Virus record (IMG/VR): IMGVR_UViG_3300037484_000445
Location: 96,001 to 160,000 of that record
From: a virus
Taxonomy: Duplodnaviria > Heunggongvirae > Uroviricota > Caudoviricetes
DNA length: 64,000 nt
Reading direction: 5' to 3' (one strand)
Shown: in pieces, positions 6,600 through 20,514 of the stretch
Position numbering within the stretch: position 1 is the stretch's first letter
How the letters are laid out: each line of letters starts with the position of its first letter
The notes under the pieces: model-generated
Told to the model about the DNA's origin: nothing
Database searches by the model: none
What the model saw: only the letters and a program-made list of their open reading frames with translations
Translations under genes and position numbers: made by a program

Positions 6600-7100
6600 A
6601 TGGTCTTCTTTCCCCGATTCCGTATCAACCTGAAGCCCCTAATCCCCGAGGGTATGGGTGATGTTGATGCTAAGAAAGTCCTGAAGGCCGTGCAGAAGGA
6701 GATCCTCAAGTCGCTTCAAGATGAGATCCAAGGTCAAGCCTTTTCCCACAGAGCTAAGGCGGCTTTAGCTAAGGGTATGACCACCAAGATGGGCCCCAAT
6801 AGCCTAACTGTCATTGCAACGCATCCAGCCTTTCTACCCCTTCTCGACGGGCAGAAGCGTCAGCAAATGACTTGGCTTACGAAGGCTAAGACACCCATAC
6901 CCATCATCTTGGACAACGGTGAATTGATCTTTCGAAACGCCACGCCACACTCTATGAATCGTGGGCGTTGGTATCACCCTGGGCGCCAGTCAACCACGGT
7001 TATCGAAAAGGCTCGTGACCACACGCGTGAGGTAATCAAGAAACGCTTAGCCAAAGAGCTTCAGCGTAGGCTCGGTAAGGCCATGCGGGGCGGAAGATGA
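6600..7100 (+). CDS. putative tail-completion (HK97 gp10-like) neck protein
   Basis: ATG at 6600 just after the upstream stop. Basic protein ending in W-x-HPG plus an amphipathic helix, in the expected position after the head-closure gene. Confidence 0.5.
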   Translation: MVFFPRFRINLKPLIPEGMGDVDAKKVLKAVQKEILKSLQDEIQGQAFSHRAKAALAKGMTTKMGPNSLTVIATHPAFLPLLDGQKRQQMTWLTKAKTPIPIILDNGELIFRNATPHSMNRGRWYHPGRQSTTVIEKARDHTREVIKKRLAKELQRRLGKAMRGGR

Positions 7101-7684
7101 AGGGCGGTATGTTAGTCACCAAATCTTCTACGGGCTCGTTTCTCATTGAGGACATCAAGATCTGTGTTACTCATGGTGGTACGGGTACGTACATTTGTGC
7201 GGATGACGCCGTTAACTCTTCGGACCTTTACCGAGCCATCAACTCGGGTGTCCTAATGCTGTTGGTTGATTCTATGCCTCAGGTTCCTGTAAAGCCGGCC
7301 CAACAACCTGGATTCTCAAAAGAGGAGCTCCTACAGAACGAAAATCAGGAGCTTCGTGAGGCTCTAGCTCGCTCGACTCAACAGGGGGACTCCCTTCAGA
7401 CGAGTATGTCCTCGTTGCAGGACCAGCTAACCACTCTTTTGGCCGCCGTAGGGCGCATAGAGACGGCGCCTAAGGCCGTTCAGACCATAGTCGTAGCAGA
7501 AGGTCAGGCAAGGTCTGTCCAGGCTCAAGAGCCTTCTGAGAGGCTCCCTGTGTTCGTTCCCGATGATTTGATCCCTAAAGATGCGGAAGTACGGATCAAC
7601 TTCCACACAGAGACCGCTGAGGAAGACACGACTTCAGACACCGTTAGTAAACTGCGGGAGTTACGTCGAAGGAACAAGGGTTGA
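7097..7684 (+). CDS. hypothetical coiled-coil protein
   Basis: ATGA overlap with the previous stop, central coiled coil, KLRELRRR C-terminus. Confidence 0.7.
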   Translation: MKGGMLVTKSSTGSFLIEDIKICVTHGGTGTYICADDAVNSSDLYRAINSGVLMLLVDSMPQVPVKPAQQPGFSKEELLQNENQELREALARSTQQGDSLQTSMSSLQDQLTTLLAAVGRIETAPKAVQTIVVAEGQARSVQAQEPSERLPVFVPDDLIPKDAEVRINFHTETAEEDTTSDTVSKLRELRRRNKG

Positions 7685-7713
7685 TCTTTTGATGGCCCCT
7701 TGTTTCATGTGAG
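7682..7713 (+). promoter_or_regulatory. bipartite upstream motif (candidate late promoter)
   Basis: TGATCTTTTGAT-N15-GTGAG upstream of ATG 7720. Confidence 0.45.
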
Positions 7714-7719
7714 GTATTT

Positions 7720-8382
7720 ATGTCCGCGAATTCTAGTGAGAGCCAGAAGGTTGTTTGGTACGCCCCGACAGACTATGATGCCCTGAAGCACGGGCCTCCC
7801 TACTTGCCCCCATCGGGAGCAGTCAAGCTGAGCTCTGAGCAACGAGCGAGCATAAAGACCCATATCAAGCAAGCCGCCTTCTATGACGCTCCATCAATCA
7901 TGGACCCAGGAGCTTCGAGTTCAACACACCTGACCCAACTCTTAGGGCTTCTTCAAGCTTTGGCCATGTTGCATCAGGCACACCATTGGAACACTAAAGG
8001 TTCTGCCTACTACGCTGATCACTTGTTGTTCGAGCGATTGTACAACGATTCCGTCGGCTTTATCGATGGGTTAGCTGAAAAGGCTTTGGGCCTGAAAGAA
8101 ACTGTCACGGTCATAGCCGTGAATCAGGCTCAAATCATTCACGAGCTCTTAGCTTTTTTCGGTCAGGGTTCCAACCCCGATGAGATGGTGGCTATCAGTC
8201 TGAAGGCTGAGATGGTCTGTTTGAACTGCATAGCCAAGGTGCTGGACACCAAAGAGCTAGAGGGAACCCTTTCACACGGCCTTTCGAACATGTTGGAAGG
8301 GGTCGCAGATAAACATGAAGAGTTCGTTTACCTTTTGCAGCAACGTCACTCCGACCAGGTCTATAACTACGACCGTAGGTAG
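7720..8382 (+). CDS. dps: Dps-like ferritin-superfamily protein with N-terminal extension
   Basis: HQAHHWNTKG...ADHLLFERLYND...IDGLAEK matches the Dps ferroxidase signature (HWNxxG, H-x3-E, D-x3-E). Confidence 0.8.
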   Translation: MSANSSESQKVVWYAPTDYDALKHGPPYLPPSGAVKLSSEQRASIKTHIKQAAFYDAPSIMDPGASSSTHLTQLLGLLQALAMLHQAHHWNTKGSAYYADHLLFERLYNDSVGFIDGLAEKALGLKETVTVIAVNQAQIIHELLAFFGQGSNPDEMVAISLKAEMVCLNCIAKVLDTKELEGTLSHGLSNMLEGVADKHEEFVYLLQQRHSDQVYNYDRR

Positions 8383-8395
8383 AACGCGAGCGACA

Positions 8396-9784
8396 ATGTC
8401 CTCAGCCAAGCCCAAAAAGGCGACCAAGTCTCGACGTCGTGAGACTGACTTGGAACGCCTTTTCAGGCCATTGTTGGAGGGTGTTAGCCACAAGTTTCGA
8501 ACTAAGGCCACAGTACGTGGCCATTCAGTGGACTTTTTGTTTCAGGGTATCAAGCTTGCCGTTCAGATCTACGATGACTGTTGGCACGCCAATCCGGAAG
8601 TCTATGGTCCTGGGAAGATCCCTGTTACCAAGATTCAGCGAGATATACGTCAAAAAGACGTGAAAATCGACGATGCCTTACAGAAGGCCGGTTATCGAGT
8701 CGAGCACTTTTGGGAGCTGGACTTGAGGACTCGTTTATCTGACTGCAAGTGTAGAATCGACCAGATCATAGGAGAATGTAAAATGGAAAACCAGAAGTTT
8801 GGGGTAGGTCTCGATATAGGTACGATGAACATCGTTTCGGCGAGGAAGCCCACGGGAACGCCGTCCTTCAATAACATTCGAGACGCCTTTTTGGACTTAG
8901 AACTCGATGCTAAGAGAAGCTTGAAGCTCTCTGACGTGAACTATGTCGAGCGTAATGGTTCTCTGGTCGTTGTAGGCGATGAGGCTCTTACGATGGCCAA
9001 CTTGTTCAAGCGAGAGGCTAGACGCCCCTTGTCCAAGGGTGTCGTTTCTTCGGGTGAGGTCGACGCCCAAGAAATTCTGAGCATTCTGATTCAGACAGCT
9101 CTAGGTAAGCCCTCTGTTGCAGGGGAGCACTGCTTCTTCAGCGTTCCTGCATCACCGTTAGATGACCCCACACAGGATGTGATTTATCACACAGAGGTGT
9201 TTCGCTCGATCATCGCTTCATTGGGATACACCCCACATCCGACGAATGAAGCCATGGCTATCATCTTCAGTGAATGCGAGAATGTCAAGTTTTCTGGGCT
9301 TAGCATCAGTTTTGGTTCGGGTATGGCCAATGTGGCGCTGGCCTACCAAGCCATGGAAGCCATGTCCTTCAGCTTGGCACGTGGCGGCGACTTCGTAGAC
9401 CAGCAGTCGGCTAAAGCTGTGGGTAAGACAGCTAGTCAGATGTGCTCGATCAAGGAACGAGGCGTGAACCTAGCGGCACCCGAAGGACGAGACCAACAAG
9501 CTATTGCCTTGTATCTCAAGTCTCTGATTAGCTACACACTTCAGAAAATCAGTGCCCAGTTTAGGGTGATGAAAAACTCCATTGATCTGCCTGAAGCCAT
9601 CCCCTTCATCATCTCGGGTGGCACGTCCAAAGCCGGAGGCTTTATGGATGTCTTCCAGGGGGAATTTGACAAGATTCGAAGTAGCTTTCCGATCAAGATC
9701 AGTGAGGTCCGTCAAGCTAAGGAACCACTTAGAGCAGTGGCTAATGGGCTCTTGGTCTTGGCTTTGGAGGAGCACGAAGGCTAA
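8396..9784 (+). CDS. Vsr/DUF559-like nuclease domain fused in frame to an actin-like (MreB/ParM superfamily) ATPase; probable internal start at 8783
   Basis: N-part: VDFLF...KLAVQIYDDCWH...KD..IDDALQKAGYRVEHFWE (Vsr/DUF559 pattern). C-part: GLDIGTMN (phosphate 1), NEAMAII, SFGSGMAN (phosphate 2), IISGGTS (adenosine), AVANG. AGGAG at 8770-8774 lies 8 nt before in-frame ATG 8783. Confidence 0.8.
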   Translation: MSSAKPKKATKSRRRETDLERLFRPLLEGVSHKFRTKATVRGHSVDFLFQGIKLAVQIYDDCWHANPEVYGPGKIPVTKIQRDIRQKDVKIDDALQKAGYRVEHFWELDLRTRLSDCKCRIDQIIGECKMENQKFGVGLDIGTMNIVSARKPTGTPSFNNIRDAFLDLELDAKRSLKLSDVNYVERNGSLVVVGDEALTMANLFKREARRPLSKGVVSSGEVDAQEILSILIQTALGKPSVAGEHCFFSVPASPLDDPTQDVIYHTEVFRSIIASLGYTPHPTNEAMAIIFSECENVKFSGLSISFGSGMANVALAYQAMEAMSFSLARGGDFVDQQSAKAVGKTASQMCSIKERGVNLAAPEGRDQQAIALYLKSLISYTLQKISAQFRVMKNSIDLPEAIPFIISGGTSKAGGFMDVFQGEFDKIRSSFPIKISEVRQAKEPLRAVANGLLVLALEEHEG

Positions 9785-10957
9785 GTGTACTACTACCTCG
9801 TCCAGGCCCTAAAACGTCGGCTCATCCTTGAGTTGAAGGATAGCTTTGGTAAACACCCGATTTACCAGAAGATAACGCCTTTCATTCAAAACCGCTTCTC
9901 GTTTGAAGAGCGGCCTCAGTATGGCATCGTCGTCAAAGGGTCAAGCACCAGTAAGGTGGTACTTTCGGGGGACAACTTCGTAGGCAATCTTCAAAGCCAT
10001 GTGATGTTGGCTTATGTCGGTCAAGAGGTGAACCCTATTGAATGGGTACGTGAAGATCTTAAGGCTATAACCAAGAACAAGGGTATGCCTACTCTGCCGG
10101 GAGTCTACTACATTGAGATCTTGACGGCCCCAACGCTTCCTGGTGAGTCTGGTTATTTCATGGTTGACCCTCTACTCACGGTGAATGATGAGCCCGTTCT
10201 CATGTTTCAATCCGGTGTTGAACGTGAGGCTCAGCTACAACGGGCCCCGACGCCCAATACCCTAAGGCTATACGAAAATAGAAACTACCTTCTTCGTGAA
10301 GGTGTTGACTACACGGTAGATTATGGAACGGGTGCTATTTCCCTAATCACGACGTTCGGTGTTGGATCTACCTTGTCTGCTGACTATCGCTATCCTGGTG
10401 AATCCGTAGGACCTATAGAGTTTTTGTGGAACACAGCGGATCTGACTACTTTGCCAGGGGTTGTCATGGCTTTCGGTAAGAGAGCCGCCGATGGGCAAAA
10501 GGTAGCTGTGGTGGTTTATGGGGACCGTGTTGACGCAGCCCTTGTTTATGGCGGTAAGAACGAAGTGTCCTTCGACATGGACGTGATATCTCGAGATCCT
10601 ACACAGATGGAGGAGATCTCGGACTTAGTTCAGATGTACCTCTTGAAGCGAAAGTCGCTTTTGGAGTTCGAAGGTATTGAACTGCTCGATGTCTCAATGG
10701 GTGGTGAAGGTGAAGAACTCGCGGATGAGACCGGAGAAAACTTCTTCTACCAGGCTTCTATGTCCGTTCAACTTCGAGCGGATTGGGAATTCCACGTACC
10801 TTTGCCTCTGACGATAAGTAAAGCCACACCAGTTAGACCCCAAGGGGAGCTTGATCCAAATTCACAGTCGGGGATCATACAGGTTGCGGGAGACCTGTTC
10901 TTCCTGACCCATGATGCCGTCGAAAAACGTAGTGATGACTACGAGAGGATCGGCTAA
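9785..10957 (+). CDS. putative tail terminator / tail completion protein
   Basis: GTG start abutting the upstream stop. The P-x-x-x-I-VV...SFDMDVISRD..QMEEISDLV...YQASMSV pattern fits tail terminator folds. Carries an inserted GVDYTVDY.TG.I beta-domain and lies upstream of the sheath. Confidence 0.55.
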   Translation: MYYYLVQALKRRLILELKDSFGKHPIYQKITPFIQNRFSFEERPQYGIVVKGSSTSKVVLSGDNFVGNLQSHVMLAYVGQEVNPIEWVREDLKAITKNKGMPTLPGVYYIEILTAPTLPGESGYFMVDPLLTVNDEPVLMFQSGVEREAQLQRAPTPNTLRLYENRNYLLREGVDYTVDYGTGAISLITTFGVGSTLSADYRYPGESVGPIEFLWNTADLTTLPGVVMAFGKRAADGQKVAVVVYGDRVDAALVYGGKNEVSFDMDVISRDPTQMEEISDLVQMYLLKRKSLLEFEGIELLDVSMGGEGEELADETGENFFYQASMSVQLRADWEFHVPLPLTISKATPVRPQGELDPNSQSGIIQVAGDLFFLTHDAVEKRSDDYERIG

Positions 10958-11374
10958 ATGCCTAAATTTACATTCGAGTGCAAATGTGGCCTAAATTTCT
11001 CACGCACCTTGAAGATGGGGGATCACAAGACGTTTGAGTGTCCTTCTTGCCATGAGGAAGCCCCTCGAGTGTGGGAGAGCTTTGGATTTAGCTTCGCCCC
11101 CGGGGGTTCGGCGCCAGCTAACAGTGGGGTATCTAAGCACGATTACCCTAGTGCTGACCAAATTGTAGGGTCTGATGCCGACAAACGTTGGCAGATCTAT
11201 CAAGAACGAGAAAAAGTGAAGGGTACTGTCCGAAAAGTGGGGGGTAATAGGGCTTTGGTGCGAAAAAACGGCAAGGACTTCATCGAATACTCAGCTGGCA
11301 GCCAAAAGACCATTGAGACCCGTAAGGGCCTAGCGACCGAGCTGTCGAACATTCTGAAGCGTCCCCCTGCTTAA
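10958..11374 (+). CDS. FmdB-like zinc-ribbon protein
   Basis: MPKFTFECKCG..F...ECPSCHEEAPRV matches the MP-x-Y/F-x-Y/F-x-C...CP-x-C FmdB zinc-ribbon pattern. Confidence 0.75.
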   Translation: MPKFTFECKCGLNFSRTLKMGDHKTFECPSCHEEAPRVWESFGFSFAPGGSAPANSGVSKHDYPSADQIVGSDADKRWQIYQEREKVKGTVRKVGGNRALVRKNGKDFIEYSAGSQKTIETRKGLATELSNILKRPPA

Positions 11375-11381
11375 CACCCAA

Positions 11382-11411
11382 TAATTCCTTGTTGGGCACA
11401 GTCCTTGTGAG
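11382..11411 (+). promoter_or_regulatory. bipartite upstream motif (candidate late promoter for the sheath gene)
   Basis: TAATTCCTTGTT-N13-GTGAG, with the same spacing as the 4775 copy, 110 nt upstream of the sheath ATG. Confidence 0.55.
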
Positions 11412-11521
11412 ACCTGGGTTTCTACCCGGGCCAGATGCAGACCAAGATCAGATCCAAAGAGCCCTCGATATAGACCCAAATCGACAACGCCGGTTTATTG
11501 CCGGCACACAAGGAGTTCAGG

Positions 11522-14500
11522 ATGGCCGCAGGTCTTGGTCCGTTTACTACGTATGTACCCCCTGGTGTTTACACTCGGACTCTTTCCGAGGCCAATGCTG
11601 CCAACCTGGTAGCAGGGCTTAGAATCCCTGTCGTAATTGGTGTCGGTCAAGAAGAGCTAGAACAGGATGACCTTGAGTTAGTCCGCGGTTCCAGTGCCAA
11701 CCTCGACCAACAGATCGTCAATGAAGACGTCTCGGCTCGATTCGTTGTCGACTTCACCAACCCGAACAACCCTATCCTCGGCGCGGCCAATGGAACCGTA
11801 ACTCGTTTCCGGGTAAGAAACTTCCCGATCGTTGACGGCCAGGGATTCGGCCGTGTGACCAATAACGTTCGAAGCGTTTCGGTCACCATCAACGGCAGTC
11901 CAGTGGCTGTTGGTGCGGTTCAAGGCCAGGGCGGTTACGTCATTCTTCAGGTGCCCCCGCAAACGGGCGACAACGTTCGTGTCACCTACTACTTCCACCG
12001 CTCGGACACCGCTTTTACGGACGATGTTTCGGAGCAAGTAACCGCATCTCAGGCTGAATTGATCACTCCTGGGTATGCCCCATTCGTTGTTACGACGGGT
12101 GTGACGGATACCTTTACTCTGAACATCGACGGTACCGACACAACTCTTTCCTTCGCCGCGGGTAGCTACACGGCTTCAGGCCTCAAAACCCTCATCGACT
12201 CCAATCTGATCACTGGCTTGGCGACGGCAGTTTTCACGGACAACCAGGGCCTCGACCATATCAAGTTCATCTCGGCTCGTAGCTTGACGATTGGTACAGG
12301 CAACGCCAACGGCGCTCTAGGTTTTGCCGCTGGGACAACGACCACTCGTAATGCTAGTTTCCGTGTTTTTCAGCGTCCTATTGTGGACGGTACGGACGGT
12401 GGTATCACCACCACGGATACGACCAAGGTCGTGGTTACGGTCAACAGTGTTCAGGTGGTTGCCTCGTCTGTGGACGGTACCAACGGCATTGTCACCCTTC
12501 CCTACGCCCCGGCGGCGGGATCCACGGTCAGGATTCAGTACTTTGCCAACACCTGGCAAGACACGTTTGACTACCTGCCGAATACGCTGGTAACCAACGT
12601 CATTCGTTGTGGTTTTGCCACGGGACGTAGTGACTTCATTCAGGGTCAAGACTTCGTGGTTTCCAACCCAAGTCCGGATGTGTCGATCCTGCATTGGGGT
12701 GCCAGCTACGTAGCCGCCTCTGCACAGAGAACTGCTGGGGCAACGCTCTTCAATGACACTCAGATTCTTCCGACTCTCGTGGACAACAAGATGTTCATGG
12801 CGGCGGCGGATCGTGTCATTGACACGACGGTAGTTCCAGCATTGGTTTCTACCAACAAGTTCACGCTGCCTGAGGTCCCAACGACTGGTAACGGTCGAGA
12901 CACGCCCCTAGGTTCGGCGTTGTATAGCGAGGTAACCAACGGTCGTATTGGTCTCAACACCAACCGACCCGACCTGGTTTCGGTCTACACGGGTCGCAAT
13001 ATCTTGGATGCCCTTGGTAGGGCTCCTGCTGTCGTGACCGAGGTTGATGGTGCCACTCGGCAGATCACCCTCAAGAACGAGGTTCCTCCGGATCACCAAG
13101 CGTTCTGCACGTTCTACTACAACCGTCTGCAGGATGACACCTTCATCCTAACCAACCTTGTCTCGGGTCCTATCGGTACGGGTCAGTTCGAAGTCCTTAG
13201 TACGCTCACGGGCACGAATGTTCTCCAAGTTCGTTTTGGCACCAAGACGGGACTTCCAGAAACGATTCAGTGGCCGCGTGGGGTAGAGACGGTACCGGAT
13301 GCCTTCCACACAGGTGCTGGCACGCCAGTATCGGAGACGGTTACGGTTACTTTCGGACAGACCACGGCTCAAAACGCTGTGTTCACGAACGAGGGCGCCG
13401 CTCCGTACTCTTTCTACCAGACGACTTCGGATCAGTGGGGAACGACGGTCAACGGCAACCCTTATGTGACCAACCTGTTTAGCCCTGCTAACGGTTATTT
13501 GGTCTCGTCTCGGGTTGAGGTAGACGGCTCCAACCAAATCACAATCCCCGTTGCACCGAACAACGTCCTTTCGGTGGCTTTCGGTGGTGCAACTTCCGCT
13601 ACTGGTACGATCACGGTCGTAGCTGGATCGGCTCTTGTGGACACCGAAACCTTCACCCTAAATGACGGTGTGAATCCGGCAACGATCTTCGAGTTTGATA
13701 GTGGTGGTGGCGTAACGCCTGGTCACGTCGCGGTGGCTTACACAGCCTTGGACACCATAGCTACCGTTCGAACCTCTGTGATTGCAGCCATCAATGGTGT
13801 GCTTGGAACACTGCTCATTACAGCGGCTCCTTCGGCAACACCTGGTGTCATCAACCTGATCAATGATGGCGTGGGTGCCGCTGGCAACCAAGCTATCACC
13901 GAGACAGTCGCTGATGTTGGCTTCATCGTCACGGGTATGGCAGGTGGCGTTGGAACGCAGTCCAACATATCCATCACAGCCGGTGCTCGCACACCGGCTC
14001 AAATTGTGTCGGACATCAATACGGCTTTGGGCTCGCCCTTGGCTTCGTTCCGTCAGATCGGTGGTATCAACGGTCCGGTGTTCTTCCTCATTCAGACCAA
14101 CACCATTCCAGCGGTTCTGCCTGGTGGTTTTGATCACGCCTCAACGGTTTCAATCCGTCAAGGTACGGTCGAAAATGTCCTTGGTTTTAGTACGTTCCAG
14201 TCGGCTACGGGTACGCCAACGGCTACCAACAAGCCAGCTACGATCCTTGGAACTTTGGCAGGTCCGTTCATTATCACGACGGGTGTCAACGACCAGTTGA
14301 ACATTCGCCTAAATGGCATCGACTATACGGTAACCTTGCCGGCGGGTGTGGCAGTTACGGCAGCAGCTGTTGCTGCGGCTATCAATCTGGTGCCTGGTCT
14401 GGCGGGTGTGTCCTCGGTAGGTACGTTGGCGAACTTGAACAAGGTTCGCCTTACGAGTGGCCTTACGAACCCAAGCTCAAGCATCCGGATCTTGGCTGGT

Positions 14501-16257: not shown

Positions 16258-19200
16258 ATGCAACTCACAGAGCAACCCATGGCTATCGTGGCGGCGGAAG
16301 AAGAAACTGAGGAGCCCCTTGGTGAATTCCAAGTCGCTGAATACATCATTTTCATTCTTGCCCTCGATACATACATGCGGTACGCCGAGGAAACCTCGGG
16401 GGTTGATGACATTGAAGACCAAGTCATTCATAAGGGTATGCGTATCCTACGTATGGCTGAGACGGAGATTGAACGTCTTCAAGCTTTTCTTCAGGAGCAT
16501 CTCGAGACTAACACTCAACAGTCAATGCTCCGTCGTGCCCTGACTATGACGGTGGCCACGACTGCAGGGATCTCGAGGAGAGCCTTGCAGTTCAGGACTC
16601 TTCTATCGAGGGGTGGGCCAGCTACAATCAAGGGGATCTTCACCTCACAGAAGTATATTCGACAGGTTCGTGAGGCCATCACGGCTTCAACGCTCTCTGA
16701 TGCTGATGCTGCCTTGGACGTCTTTGCTGCCCTGCCTATAAAGAACGCCAGGATGCGCAATTGGATCGACATAGCAGCCAAGCAGGCTGGTTCGGGCATA
16801 GCAGCTCCGGCGCCTGTGGACAATGCAGCCAATGAGGTAGTAGCTGCTCCCGAGATCACGAACACGAGTTTGCAAGGGGCTGCGGCTTCTGGAGCTTCTG
16901 ACGCCAAGGATTCTCAAGACAATCGGGCAGCCATGCTCTCGAGGGTTCAGACCGATGCCACGGAGGCTGCCCGAAAATCCTTGGAAATCAACCAGCAACC
17001 GGACACGCCCCCTATTCAGTCCGAGGTTGTTGGTATTGCCACGGCAGCAGCCGTAGCGGCCATCAGCGACCCGCTTCTCTCTCAGAACGTCCCAGCCCCC
17101 CTACGTAAGCTAGACGACGAGCAGAGGGCAGCAGCGGTCACGGATGGCAGGGTCCTCGTAGCGGCCGGTGCTGGCGCTGGTAAATCGACGACCCTTGTAG
17201 CCAGGATCGAGTATCTTGTAAAGGATCGACGAGTTCTCCCGAGTCGTATCCTGGCCACATCCTTCAACAAAAAGGCAGCCAGCGAGCTGAGAGAAAAGAT
17301 TGGCCGGACATCAGGTGGTGATGCCCTGACCCAAATGAGCGTCGGTACCATGCACGGGTTGTTCCGGAAGTTCATTGGTAGCTACGGAACCACTGCCGAA
17401 CAGATCGCCGTTGGTGCCTCACGAAGTCCTAATGGGTTCATTGAGGGGGGTGCTTCTGTAGCTCGTACGGTACAACGTATGTGGGAAGAGTGCTACGGGA
17501 AAGACGAGCCAGCACCTAAGCTCAAAGATGTCATGCGTTACAAGAGCTTGTGGGCAGGGAACAACATTCCTCCAGCTCAAGCTCGGGCAGAGGCCAAGAC
17601 TAAAAAAGAATCTGAGGCAGCCCTTTGGTACGAAATGTATGAAGGGCTCAAGGGAGCCATTCCTGGGTGGGATCCTCCTTGTAGAGGTCGAGCCTATGAA
17701 GGCTTCATGGCACGCTACCGTCCTCGAGACATTCGTCTAGGAGACTTTGACGACATGTTGAACATCTTCCACGCGGTTCTCAAGCGGGAACCAGCCGTAA
17801 GGAAGACTATTCAATCCATGTACGACCACATCATGGTCGATGAGGCCCAGGATCGTAATGCCGTTCAAGCCGAAATCATCGATATGATCTCGGAGCACAT
17901 AGGTGACGGTTCTGACGGACGATCACTTTGGGTTGTGGGCGACGACAAGCAATGTGTTCAAGAGGACACTCCTATCTCAATTGATGAAGAGCATCAAGTC
18001 CCAGCTAAAGACCTCAAGGAGGGGGATACTGTCCTATCTTACCGAAACGGATCCTTGGTTAAACAGGTGGTTCGTTGTGTTAAACCCAGTTTTTGGGCGT
18101 CCGGTTATTGTATCACAACATCTAGTGGTCGAAGCCTCACAATGTCTCCAAACCACAAGATCTGGGCTCAAAGCCCAGTACTTAGTGGTAATCAAGTAGC
18201 TGTCTACCTGATGTTCCGCAAGGACTTTGGCTTTCGCGTAGGCATCACTAATAAGTGTCATGATGAGGAGTATCTGAATTCCTTTGGTGGTCGAGCTTTC
18301 ATGGAGAAAGCTGAACGTATGTGGATTTTGGAGGTGTGCCAAGACCGTGAGACAGCCCTTCTCGTTGAAGCTCGCTATTCTCTCAAATACGGCGTACCAA
18401 CAGCGGTGTTTGGTGGAGAGAATCGCGGACTCAACCAAGATCGTATAGATCAGCTATTCAAGGAGTTTGGTGCTAACGGGTATCAGGTTTTGGAGGCTAA
18501 ACACTTGAGCTTCGACCTCCCTCATTGGCTTAGTCAATCTTACACCAAACACGGTCGAGGTCGGCGTACTGTCCAGATGACGGCACATGGGGGTAAGGGC
18601 TCACAAGTGAGCTTAGAGTGGTCTGGCGACGACTTGGACTCTAAATTAGAGCATGTGGCATTCCATCAGAATGGCGAACGTCGTCGAATTCGAAAGTGGT
18701 TTGCTAGCTATCGAGAAGCTCTGGATTTTGCTGAACACGTTTCGGAACTTGCTGAAGCCAATCTATCTCGTCGACTGTCGACAGATAGTGGTGTGATTCG
18801 TTTGCTTACAGCATCGGGGCTATTCCCGGGTATGCAAGTTGCTGTTCTTGATACAGGTACAGTGTGTTTGGAGGAAATACTCTCAGTTGAAGAGGTCAAG
18901 GGCTCGTTCATCGATCTGGATGTTGATGATGCCTCTAACTTTTTTGGTGGGGGTATTCTCTCACACAACAGTATTTACGGATTCCGTGGAGCCCGACCAG
19001 ACTTGTTCTCCGATTTGAATGGTAAAGAGGGTTGGAAGACCCGAATGATTCGCACTAACTATCGCTGTGAGCCAGAGATCGTTGAAGCTGCTAATCGTTT
19101 GGTTGCTCACAATGAGGGGCAGATTCCAATGGAAGCCGTCCCGAGTCCGCACAAGACTCGAGGAGTTGGCAGCATTGCGGTGACCAATCCCAGTGATGAA

Positions 19201-20514
19201 GCTGAGGGCGCCATCCAGGTTGCTAGTGAGATCAAAGCTAACTTGGACATTGGCGGCAATGTGACGGATAATGCCGTCTTATGTCGCACCAACCGAGAGA
19301 TTCATGCTTACGAGACGGCATGCATCCTTCGGGGTATACCGTATGCACGCAAGGGTGTTTCCAGCTTTTTAGGATCCCCCGAAACCAATGCCTTTTTGGG
19401 CTACATTCAATTGGTCACGGGCACCGATTTTGAAAAGATGCAGAAGGCTTTGGGTAACATCATCAACCGTCCGAACCGGTTCTTCATATCGCCCAAGGTT
19501 GGTGAAGAGGCTGTTTCTGGCGCTCTTGTGGATTACGCTCGTAGTACCAGGTCAGACCTGAAGCACGTCAATCCTGTCACAGCTCTGCAAGACAGGCAGT
19601 TTCAGAGGATTCTTGCGGGTAAGTTGACGGGCACCTTCTCTGGTTTCAAGTTTGAGAAGGCTGTTGAGCAACTACAATCGATTTACTCATCACTTGCTCA
19701 GATGCAAGCTAACTCATCAGATCCCGGGTATACAACGAAGGTGATGTTCGATGACATCTTGGCCTTGAATGGTGTCGTAACGGTCACTGACCCCAACACT
19801 CAACGTGTCAAGTACGTTGAGCAATCCCTGCGAGAGACGCTTCAGATCGAGATGCGTGATGCTACGGGCGATGACTCTGAGGATGAGGTTGAGGACGAGG
19901 ATGATGAGACCAAGGGCCTAGGTAACATTGCTTTCCTTTACCAACTCATCCAAAAGGATCCTACCGATCCCGGGGATCTTGCCGATGACCCTAATACTCC
20001 TGTAGGGTTTAAGGCCAAGATTGAGCGATATGCAGCGAAGATGAAAGACCTTCGCACAGACATCTCCAAGTGGGATAAGGAGCAAGAGAGTCTCCCACCT
20101 GAGAAACGCTCTCCGCCACCAGGTGTGTACTTGGGCACGGTCCACAGCGTCAAGGGAGCTCAATGGGCTAACACATATGTGTCCATGCCCAAAGGAAAGT
20201 TCCCGTTCGAACCTCCTAAGCAACCAGGAGTTGCTGTCATCGACGATAAGGCCCAACAGGATCAAGAAGAGAGTGAACGTCGTTTGGCCTACGTGGCTTT
20301 GACTCGGGCGGCCAAGTCACTCACAGTGATTTGCCCTAAGTCCGTTGGTGGTAAAGCTGCCGGCATCAGCCCCTTCGTAGCTGAAGCTGGGTTGACGGTT
20401 GGCCAGAATGTGCAACGTCCAGGAAAGCCGATAGAAGCCCCCGTTGGAGAAGAGGAACCCATCAAGACTGCTGAAGTTCTTGAGTGGCATCCAGAGTACG
20501 AGGAGACAGCTTAA
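16258..20514 (+). CDS. uvrD: UvrD/PcrA/Rep superfamily 1 helicase, intein-containing, with about 280-aa N-terminal extension
   Basis: LDDEQRAA (Q motif), AGAGAGKST (Walker A), SFNKKAA, TMHG, VDEAQD (Walker B), GDDKQ/SIYGFRGA (motif III, split by the intein), NYRC, LCRTN, TVHSVKG, ERRLAYVALTRA. Confidence 0.93.
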   Translation: MQLTEQPMAIVAAEEETEEPLGEFQVAEYIIFILALDTYMRYAEETSGVDDIEDQVIHKGMRILRMAETEIERLQAFLQEHLETNTQQSMLRRALTMTVATTAGISRRALQFRTLLSRGGPATIKGIFTSQKYIRQVREAITASTLSDADAALDVFAALPIKNARMRNWIDIAAKQAGSGIAAPAPVDNAANEVVAAPEITNTSLQGAAASGASDAKDSQDNRAAMLSRVQTDATEAARKSLEINQQPDTPPIQSEVVGIATAAAVAAISDPLLSQNVPAPLRKLDDEQRAAAVTDGRVLVAAGAGAGKSTTLVARIEYLVKDRRVLPSRILATSFNKKAASELREKIGRTSGGDALTQMSVGTMHGLFRKFIGSYGTTAEQIAVGASRSPNGFIEGGASVARTVQRMWEECYGKDEPAPKLKDVMRYKSLWAGNNIPPAQARAEAKTKKESEAALWYEMYEGLKGAIPGWDPPCRGRAYEGFMARYRPRDIRLGDFDDMLNIFHAVLKREPAVRKTIQSMYDHIMVDEAQDRNAVQAEIIDMISEHIGDGSDGRSLWVVGDDKQCVQEDTPISIDEEHQVPAKDLKEGDTVLSYRNGSLVKQVVRCVKPSFWASGYCITTSSGRSLTMSPNHKIWAQSPVLSGNQVAVYLMFRKDFGFRVGITNKCHDEEYLNSFGGRAFMEKAERMWILEVCQDRETALLVEARYSLKYGVPTAVFGGENRGLNQDRIDQLFKEFGANGYQVLEAKHLSFDLPHWLSQSYTKHGRGRRTVQMTAHGGKGSQVSLEWSGDDLDSKLEHVAFHQNGERRRIRKWFASYREALDFAEHVSELAEANLSRRLSTDSGVIRLLTASGLFPGMQVAVLDTGTVCLEEILSVEEVKGSFIDLDVDDASNFFGGGILSHNSIYGFRGARPDLFSDLNGKEGWKTRMIRTNYRCEPEIVEAANRLVAHNEGQIPMEAVPSPHKTRGVGSIAVTNPSDEAEGAIQVASEIKANLDIGGNVTDNAVLCRTNREIHAYETACILRGIPYARKGVSSFLGSPETNAFLGYIQLVTGTDFEKMQKALGNIINRPNRFFISPKVGEEAVSGALVDYARSTRSDLKHVNPVTALQDRQFQRILAGKLTGTFSGFKFEKAVEQLQSIYSSLAQMQANSSDPGYTTKVMFDDILALNGVVTVTDPNTQRVKYVEQSLRETLQIEMRDATGDDSEDEVEDEDDETKGLGNIAFLYQLIQKDPTDPGDLADDPNTPVGFKAKIERYAAKMKDLRTDISKWDKEQESLPPEKRSPPPGVYLGTVHSVKGAQWANTYVSMPKGKFPFEPPKQPGVAVIDDKAQQDQEESERRLAYVALTRAAKSLTVICPKSVGGKAAGISPFVAEAGLTVGQNVQRPGKPIEAPVGEEEPIKTAEVLEWHPEYEETA
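17953..18969 (+). mobile_element. intein (339 aa) in helicase motif III with a central endonuclease-like domain
   Basis: Starts with Cys (CVQEDTPI) right after GDDKQ. Block B SPNHKIW, block F FIDLDV. Ends HN before Ser(+1) of SIYGFRGA. Removing it restores the canonical motif. Confidence 0.93.

Follow-up and report, generated by a model that had tools for sequence, protein, structure and literature searches.

In a 64,000-nucleotide stretch of a tailed-phage genome (Caudoviricetes; hereafter the window, bases 96001-160000 of the 451,925-base IMG/VR virus record IMGVR_UViG_3300037484_000445), a single open reading frame (ORF) on the + strand (8396..9784) joins a nuclease domain of the Vsr fold to a complete actin-fold ATPase. 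We consider it rather probable that a free-standing homing-endonuclease gene has landed upstream of a conserved phage actin gene and reads through into it, with the short actin as the main product and the long fusion as a minor one. Given its length and a CheckV completeness of 94%, the record represents a huge phage with a genome of 452 kb; every long ORF in the window lies on the + strand. According to the proposed mechanism, a Vsr-fold nuclease gene of the EDxHD family (like I-Bth0305I and the phage Hef enzymes) would have entered the short gap that separates the actin gene from a Dps-like gene upstream, and its frame, having no stop of its own, would run through the ancestral leader and Shine-Dalgarno (SD) sequence of the actin gene into the actin ORF. 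The ancestral 333-aa actin would then be made as the main product from the retained strong ribosome-binding site (RBS) and ATG 8783, and the 462-aa nuclease-actin fusion at low level from the weak-SD ATG 8396. The nuclease would serve its own spread or retention, by intronless homing or by exclusion of competing alleles, and most likely not the function of the actin. We favour this interpretation because of the rarity of the nuclease, its insertion into an intergenic slot, its EDxHD relatives, its intact active site and complete domain, about 40 intein-hit clusters of the same actin, the conservation of the junction and the relative SD strengths, together with the exclusion of an artefact and of an intron.

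The frame is open from ATG 8396 to TAA 9782-9784 and encodes 462 aa (~51 kDa), in which 129 aa of nuclease and 333 aa of actin are joined without a stop and without a linker. A further in-frame ATG upstream (8315) falls within the preceding gene, and 8396 is the likely start because two related phages start just past the stop of that gene. The TAG stop of the Dps-like gene precedes the nuclease ATG by 13 nt, and the GTG of the next gene (9785) abuts the fusion stop. All elements that a preliminary description of this DNA had listed could be seen in the sequence: the single ORF, the AGGAG with ATG 8783, the stop/start abutment and the motifs QIYDDCWH, GLDIGT, NEA, SFGSG and SGGTS, each found in the ORF translation. 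Its division into two domains and the position of the boundary were likewise borne out by the profile matches given below (Vsr-fold matches to aa 1-129, a Volactin match to aa 130-462). The same stop-less architecture recurs in two further phage lineages from unrelated samples, P0004 (contig L006) and P0005 (L007/L008), which we compared with the window and with an unfused relative, L009. Besides, the junction is covered by contigs of three further sequencing runs, which show substitutions only, no indel and no joint, and an identical JGI contig exists for the window sequence. The fusion is not an assembly artefact, and a stop codon between the domains was seen neither in the three diverged lineages nor in the contigs of the three further runs.

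The N-terminal domain (8396..8782, aa 1-129) was assigned to the EDxHD/Vsr-fold nucleases by profile, fold and active-site matches. Using the curated Pfam cut-offs (20.6 bits for DUF559, 27 for Vsr and 35 for Volactin), it matches DUF559 (PF04480) with 21.2 bits when searched alone and 15.6 bits within the whole protein, covering positions 5-69 of the 109 profile positions only, and it stays below the cut-off for Vsr (PF03852) with 19.5 bits; PHROG 13076, annotated as endonuclease, is matched at 1.6e-7. A profile built from the three N-domains found 1,077 proteins among 1.84 billion representatives. In the best of these relatives the domain is C-terminal in proteins of ~300 aa that carry NUMOD3, helix-turn-helix (HTH) or zinc-finger regions at the N-terminus (NUMOD3 or HTH in P0125, P0128, P0129 and P0130), which is the layout of I-Bth0305I, and some relatives stand alone with 118-154 aa. 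A family profile of 24 sequences matches Vsr (1cw0) at 2.8e-16 and the catalytic domain of I-Bth0305I (3r3p) at 7.9e-13. In agreement, an AlphaFold2 (AF2) model of the domain with a mean confidence (pLDDT) of 92.7 retrieves 3r3p_B first in a Foldseek search (E 1.2e-4, TM-score by target 0.80), followed by Vsr. In the AF2 model of the full-length protein the N-domain has low confidence, so that this model makes no statement on the mutual placement of the two domains. Since relatives end a few residues past the last helix, exactly where the domain meets the actin Met, the nuclease domain is complete and lacks a stop codon only.

The residues E20 (codon 8453-8455), D46 (8531-8533), H64 (8585-8587) and D88 (8657-8659) align with E25, D51, H69 and D97 of Vsr and with E170, D196, H213 and D222 of I-Bth0305I, the set that defines the EDxHD family (PMC3239194). 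These E, D, H and D positions are nearly invariant in the 24 family members; among the three fused proteins D46, H64 and D88 are kept, and E20 is D in P0005. The preliminary description had regarded the nuclease as possibly inactive on account of its QIYDDCWH motif. However, the Q of this motif, which occupies the position of Vsr F62, is also Q in 7 of 21 close relatives, and as all four catalytic residues are present in the window protein, the motif gives no reason for inactivity. Judged by these residues, the nuclease is probably catalytically competent.

With the EDxHD homing endonucleases and the free-standing enzymes of the phage Hef type (PMC3239194), the window domain shares the Vsr-type fold with 3r3p as top match, all five motif positions (E, D, x, H, D), the absence of the Vsr zinc site, a phage-borne location beside a highly conserved gene and close relatives bearing NUMOD3 or HTH modules. 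In contrast to these enzymes, which have a separate DNA-binding domain, it carries only a basic N-terminal tail of 16 aa before the nuclease core with no NUMOD/HTH region, lies outside any intron or intein, and is translated, without a stop, as the N-terminal part of a host protein; the extra conserved acid of the EDxHD family, at the Vsr F62 position, is Q or L in the group of the window nuclease. The likeness to E. coli Vsr (1cw0, 1vsr) comprises the fold, the equivalents of D51, H69, D97 and E25, and a basic N-terminal arm ahead of the core. However, the Vsr zinc site (C66, H71, C73, C117) is not kept, with D61 in place of C66 and ANPE in place of the HHHC segment, the catalytic H64 of Vsr is Y59, and the window domain has no link to a Dcm methylase and sits in a phage intergenic insertion. 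The window domain is thus a compact nuclease core of the Vsr fold that comes with no DNA-binding module.

The C-terminal part (8783..9784, 333 aa, ~36 kDa), which we read as the ancestral gene, matches the Pfam family Volactin (PF25216) over aa 130-462 with E 9e-72 and 242.7 bits (profile positions 3-321 of 321), and the match was obtained again when PF25216 was run on the genome. Its AF2 model (pLDDT ~90) retrieves the MamK filament 5ljv first in Foldseek (TM-score by target 0.72), then MreB, crenactin and BeeR, the closest folds thus being those of bacterial actins that form filaments. No PDB sequence was matched by a profile built on the actin family, so that the likeness to solved structures comes from the fold search only. 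The actin/ASKHA fold comes with its two phosphate loops and the adenosine motif; GLDIGT, SFGSGM and SGGTS do not vary within the family. It had been noted before that Ser replaces the phosphate-2 Asp of MreB and ParM (SFGSGM.N). This is real, but it is shared by every family member seen, even by the 28%-identical copy of LR756511; the Ser thus characterises the family and marks no defect in the window's copy. Based on these fold and family relationships, the protein is probably a filament-forming ATPase of the volactin/MamK/MreB type.

The site of insertion can be read from the comparison with the unfused relative. In L009, the stop of the Dps-like gene and the actin ATG are separated by 31 nt, whereas in the window the same slot is filled by the 387-nt nuclease ORF; in all three nuclease-bearing lineages the nuclease sits between the Dps-like gene and the actin's own RBS. 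The 21 nt before ATG 8783 (cagatcataggagaatgtaaa) resemble the L009 leader (cagatcagaggaaattcaaa) in a CAGATCA element, the SD and an A-rich spacer, and owing to this likeness the last seven codons of the nuclease (QIIGECK) appear to be the ancestral actin leader read in frame. CAGATCA as such is not enriched in the window (15 found versus 9.8 expected). An Rfam scan of 7000-11600 found nothing, and therefore no group I or II intron surrounds the nuclease.

The most conserved DNA of the whole ORF lies at this boundary. The block ATAGGAGAATGTAAAATGG (8768..8786, 19 nt), composed of the SD AGGAG (8770-8774), an 8-nt spacer and ATG 8783, is the longest run of the ORF that is identical in all three lineages; it also encodes the last nuclease residues IGECK, and 5 of its 5 degenerate codons are identical, versus a background of 25.7%. 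An internal control is provided by the 11-nt three-way identical run GAGGAGCACGA (9767..9777). It is the SD of the following gene, lies within the C-terminal codons of the actin and demonstrates that embedded SDs leave such conservation. The calculated SD energy is -7.3 kcal/mol before 8783 and -3.7 kcal/mol before 8396, compared to a median of -5.95 kcal/mol for the genes of the window and -9.3 kcal/mol for GTG 9785. Taken from sequence comparison, the SD and ATG at the domain boundary look like the ancestral translation signals of the actin. The second, shorter product that the preliminary description had proposed is plausible on the same grounds, and we infer that the internal start would be used and that the short form would outweigh the long one. 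A further three-way identical run of 13 nt, GACTTGAGGACTC (8720-8732, codons DLRT), contains GAGGA and lies inside the nuclease without a start codon downstream.

Within its family the fusion is rare. The actin protein search returned 1,524 clusters at E <= 0.001, and architecture and length were judged on the best 120, which are 62-69% identical. Their lengths range from 320 to 371 aa with four exceptions, namely the window's own cluster, the two other fused clusters and one intein-bearing allele; the nuclease is thus found in three lineages including that of the window, and the rest of the best 120 lack it. Among the homologues, the fusion is present in two other lineages with the neighbours kept, but almost all listed homologues are unfused.

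The same actin gene has been hit by other elements. A search for longer actin homologues gave 42 clusters (P0118 and P0273-P0313), of which ~40 contain inteins bearing LAGLIDADG or HNH nucleases; one intein site lies after SLAR and before an invariant GGD. The actin gene is a repeated target of selfish elements. In this context, the idea that a homing nuclease landed in frame, raised before only as an alternative, fits best with the three lineages, the intergenic slot, the NUMOD3- and HTH-bearing EDxHD relatives and the inteins. A well-known parallel are the Seg and Mob endonucleases of T4-like phages, which spread by intronless homing and whose small genes lie squeezed between conserved ones, are poorly translated and occur in some relatives only, features in which the window nuclease would be alike. 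However, these free-standing genes have their own stop, whereas the window ORF reads through the RBS of its neighbour. The fusion would accordingly illustrate, in a clear natural case, how a selfish nuclease gene can use the frame of its host while the host's translation signals stay intact, and it would show a route to new multi-domain proteins and alternative-start isoforms in phages.

Several findings weigh against a landed homing nuclease. Between the three lineages synonymous sites are saturated (proportion of synonymous differences, pS, 0.69-0.81). The proportion of nonsynonymous differences (pN) is 0.18-0.20 for the nuclease versus a pS of 0.69-0.77, giving a pN/pS of ~0.25, and 0.05-0.09 for the actin. 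The nuclease and the actin parts are both under purifying selection. At the protein level the lineages are 69-70% identical in the nuclease and 87-92% in the actin, and the greater divergence of the nuclease argues for old vertical inheritance and not for recent transfer. Purifying selection together with the absence of a stop in three lineages is what a domesticated, useful domain predicts. In addition, no nuclease-free allele closer than ~69% identity was found among the best 120 of the 1,524 clusters, so that there is no direct sign of ongoing homing; the domain is without the separate DNA-binding module typical of EDxHD homing endonucleases; and the nuclease is single-copy in the genome, and when IMG/VR and JGI contigs were scanned for further copies, only the window's own sequence came back. 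A weak second "copy" at G000:444076 proved to be spurious and corresponds to NAD synthase.

These points bear on the strongest competing explanation, which we regard as unlikely though deserving of attention: the long isoform would be selected for and would co-assemble with the short actin, giving a filament that carries a Vsr-fold head for binding or cutting DNA. Like ParR or AlpA, such a head could tether phage DNA as a built-in adaptor; alternatively, the filament could scaffold a nuclease directed against the DNA of the host or of rivals. Purifying selection on the N-domain at a pN/pS of ~0.25 despite saturated synonymous sites is in line with this, and so is the junction, which has stayed open in each of the three lineages even though a stop is only a single-base change away in the last three codons. 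The nuclease also predates any recent transfer, and the lack of a DNA-binding module beyond the short basic tail would be compensated if an oligomerising partner supplied avidity. Moreover, phage actin systems with an adaptor exist, such as AlpC/AlpA (PMC4446434). On the other hand, the domain is missing, at unchanged synteny, from almost every homologue listed, and with three lineages only, which probably go back to one insertion event, retention is weak evidence. That the junction is both RBS and coding sequence accounts for its invariance, the intact catalytic residues do not suit a pure binding module, and no linker lies between the last helix of the nuclease and the first strand of the actin.

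The more specific version of this idea, in which a minor 51-kDa form co-assembles with a major 36-kDa form so that the filament bears an intact Vsr-fold head that tethers DNA or concentrates nuclease, appears to us somewhat less likely still. The "one-gene cytomotive system" of the preliminary description has no positive evidence, as almost the whole family is without the domain. Its model is found in AlpC/AlpA of the Corynebacterium prophage CGP3, where an actin-like ATPase works with a DNA-joining adaptor (PMC4446434), and in ParMRC, both of which resemble the window system in having a virus- or plasmid-borne actin-like ATPase. However, in these systems a DNA-binding protein encoded by its own co-transcribed gene acts as the adaptor at a defined site, whereas the domain attached in the window is, unlike AlpA or ParR, a homing-type nuclease that nearly all listed family members lack.

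It is improbable that the internal ATG is unused and that the three phages make a single, fully functional actin, the 462-aa fusion. The frame is indeed continuous and conserved, and the use of an internal start cannot be read from DNA, but the ancestral SD, spacing and ATG are preserved to the base, the signals at 8783 are stronger than those at 8396, and in a core protein of more than 1,500 clusters every subunit would need to accommodate an additional 129-aa head. Even less can be said for recoding, in which a programmed shift at the A-rich junction (e.g. +1 on AAA-A, 8780-8783) would free a nuclease of ~137 aa and the fusion would rarely be completed. The 19-nt block is invariant including its spacer bases, and the +1 frame after AAAA meets a TAG after 8 codons in the window; yet the junction contains no canonical slippery heptamer, the +1 frame of L006 was not seen closing at the same place, and RBS and coding function already explain the invariance. 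That an assembly or sequencing error deleted a stop between two separate genes, a thought suggested by the origin of the window from a metagenome assembly, is refuted by the open junction common to the diverged lineages L006 and L007/L008 from unrelated samples, by the indel-free contigs of the further runs and by the identical JGI contig, and its probability is negligible.

Besides the fusion, our data also allow insights into the actin itself, which is probably the more important part: an actin of the volactin family that is conserved together with its synteny in uncultivated phages of 300-600 kb and has been invaded many times by inteins. Many of the actin clusters sit on contigs of 200-465 kb, and among 50,697 GenBank phage records a homologue was present only in two assemblies of uncultured huge phages (485 and 595 kb). 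Both the actin gene and its synteny are conserved across a large group of uncultivated huge phages. Volactin of Haloferax volcanii (HVO_2015, PF25216) forms dynamic filaments in vivo (PMC10869688), and from this we infer that the phage actin would polymerise as well. The two proteins are alike in the full-profile match at 242 bits, in the actin fold and in their MreB-like proportions. In contrast, HVO_2015 lies on an archaeal chromosome and the window's actin in a fixed gene block of a huge phage, where its role cannot be cell shape and polymerisation is only predicted. In the literature searched we found no description of an actin in huge phages, a statement limited to that literature. The closest analogue is the PhuZ tubulin of nucleus-forming jumbo phages (PMC7950403), likewise a cytoskeletal protein conserved in a clade of very large phages, although PhuZ has a tubulin fold and the window protein an actin fold; the phage volactin would be its actin-based counterpart. 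Outside phages, the complete chromosome of Desulfosarcina variabilis encodes a volactin-family gene (L022:2986-3975) that is 37% identical, and as this chromosome is finished, the family has bacterial members too; the neighbours of this homologue are unrelated to the phage block. Another 14 matches lie on contigs of metagenome-assembled genomes with scattered phylum labels and are probably mis-binned phage DNA.

The gene order around the actin is kept across relatives: genes of 452, ~170 and ~190 aa precede a variable slot and the actin, and downstream of the actin come a ~390-aa gene, the Zn-ribbon gene and a ~1,500-aa gene. In the window the slot holds the Dps/ferritin-like gene (7720..8382, + strand; Pfam Ferritin 1.3e-5, PHROG 3636 4e-11). 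This gene is present in L006, L007 and L009 and absent from L010 and L002, and this patchy distribution marks the gene, too, as an accessory insertion. In other relatives the slot contains a 74-aa ORF or is empty, and these differing contents identify the slot upstream of the actin as a variable insertion point. Downstream follow the conserved 390-aa gene (9785..10957, + strand) and the conserved Zn-ribbon gene (10958..11374, + strand, 138 aa; Pfam Zn_ribbon_8 1.6e-5, under its cut-off), the latter at the same position in L002, L006, L007, L009, L010 and L012. The abutment of stop and start seen in the window is not universal, because in L007 (7447-7510) the gene after the actin is ~55 nt away and has Ile in place of the start Met (…GPIYYYL…).

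In P0289 the actin is fused in frame to a homologue of the 390-aa gene that is 48% identical. The fusion, carried by another huge phage, is encoded on L012 (5001-7217) and likewise on L013 (2257-4473), two contigs from one study; it has 738 aa, and 10 bridging codons (LCYPGGKVEA) lead up to MYFNL. Its natural occurrence is a hint that the actin and the 390-aa protein may cooperate. The earlier placement of the actin in a neck-tail operon, next to a tail terminator gene, was not confirmed: the neighbours, including the 390-aa gene, gave no match in Pfam, PHROG or PDB sequence searches (three neighbours in the case of PDB), and the sheath and terminator models PF04984, PF17482 and PF23932 found no match in the genome. 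The sole functional hint for the 390-aa gene is a language-model lead to SP10_terminator (0.89), a label that is not confirmed. A scan for sigma-70 promoters and terminators stayed at chance level (4 found versus 3.3 expected).

Elsewhere in the window, a 593-aa protein (596-2377) combines a methyltransferase, a family 2 glycosyltransferase (GT2) and tetratricopeptide repeats (TPR), and is conserved at the corresponding position in L006 and L007. The gene at 16258-20514 encodes a 1,418-aa helicase of the UvrD type with ~360 aa between its N- and C-terminal helicase domains, in which residues 833-904 give an intein-splicing match below threshold (23.8 versus 35.8 bits); this insert may be an intein or its remnant, and the L012 homologue of the helicase gene carries a clear intein.

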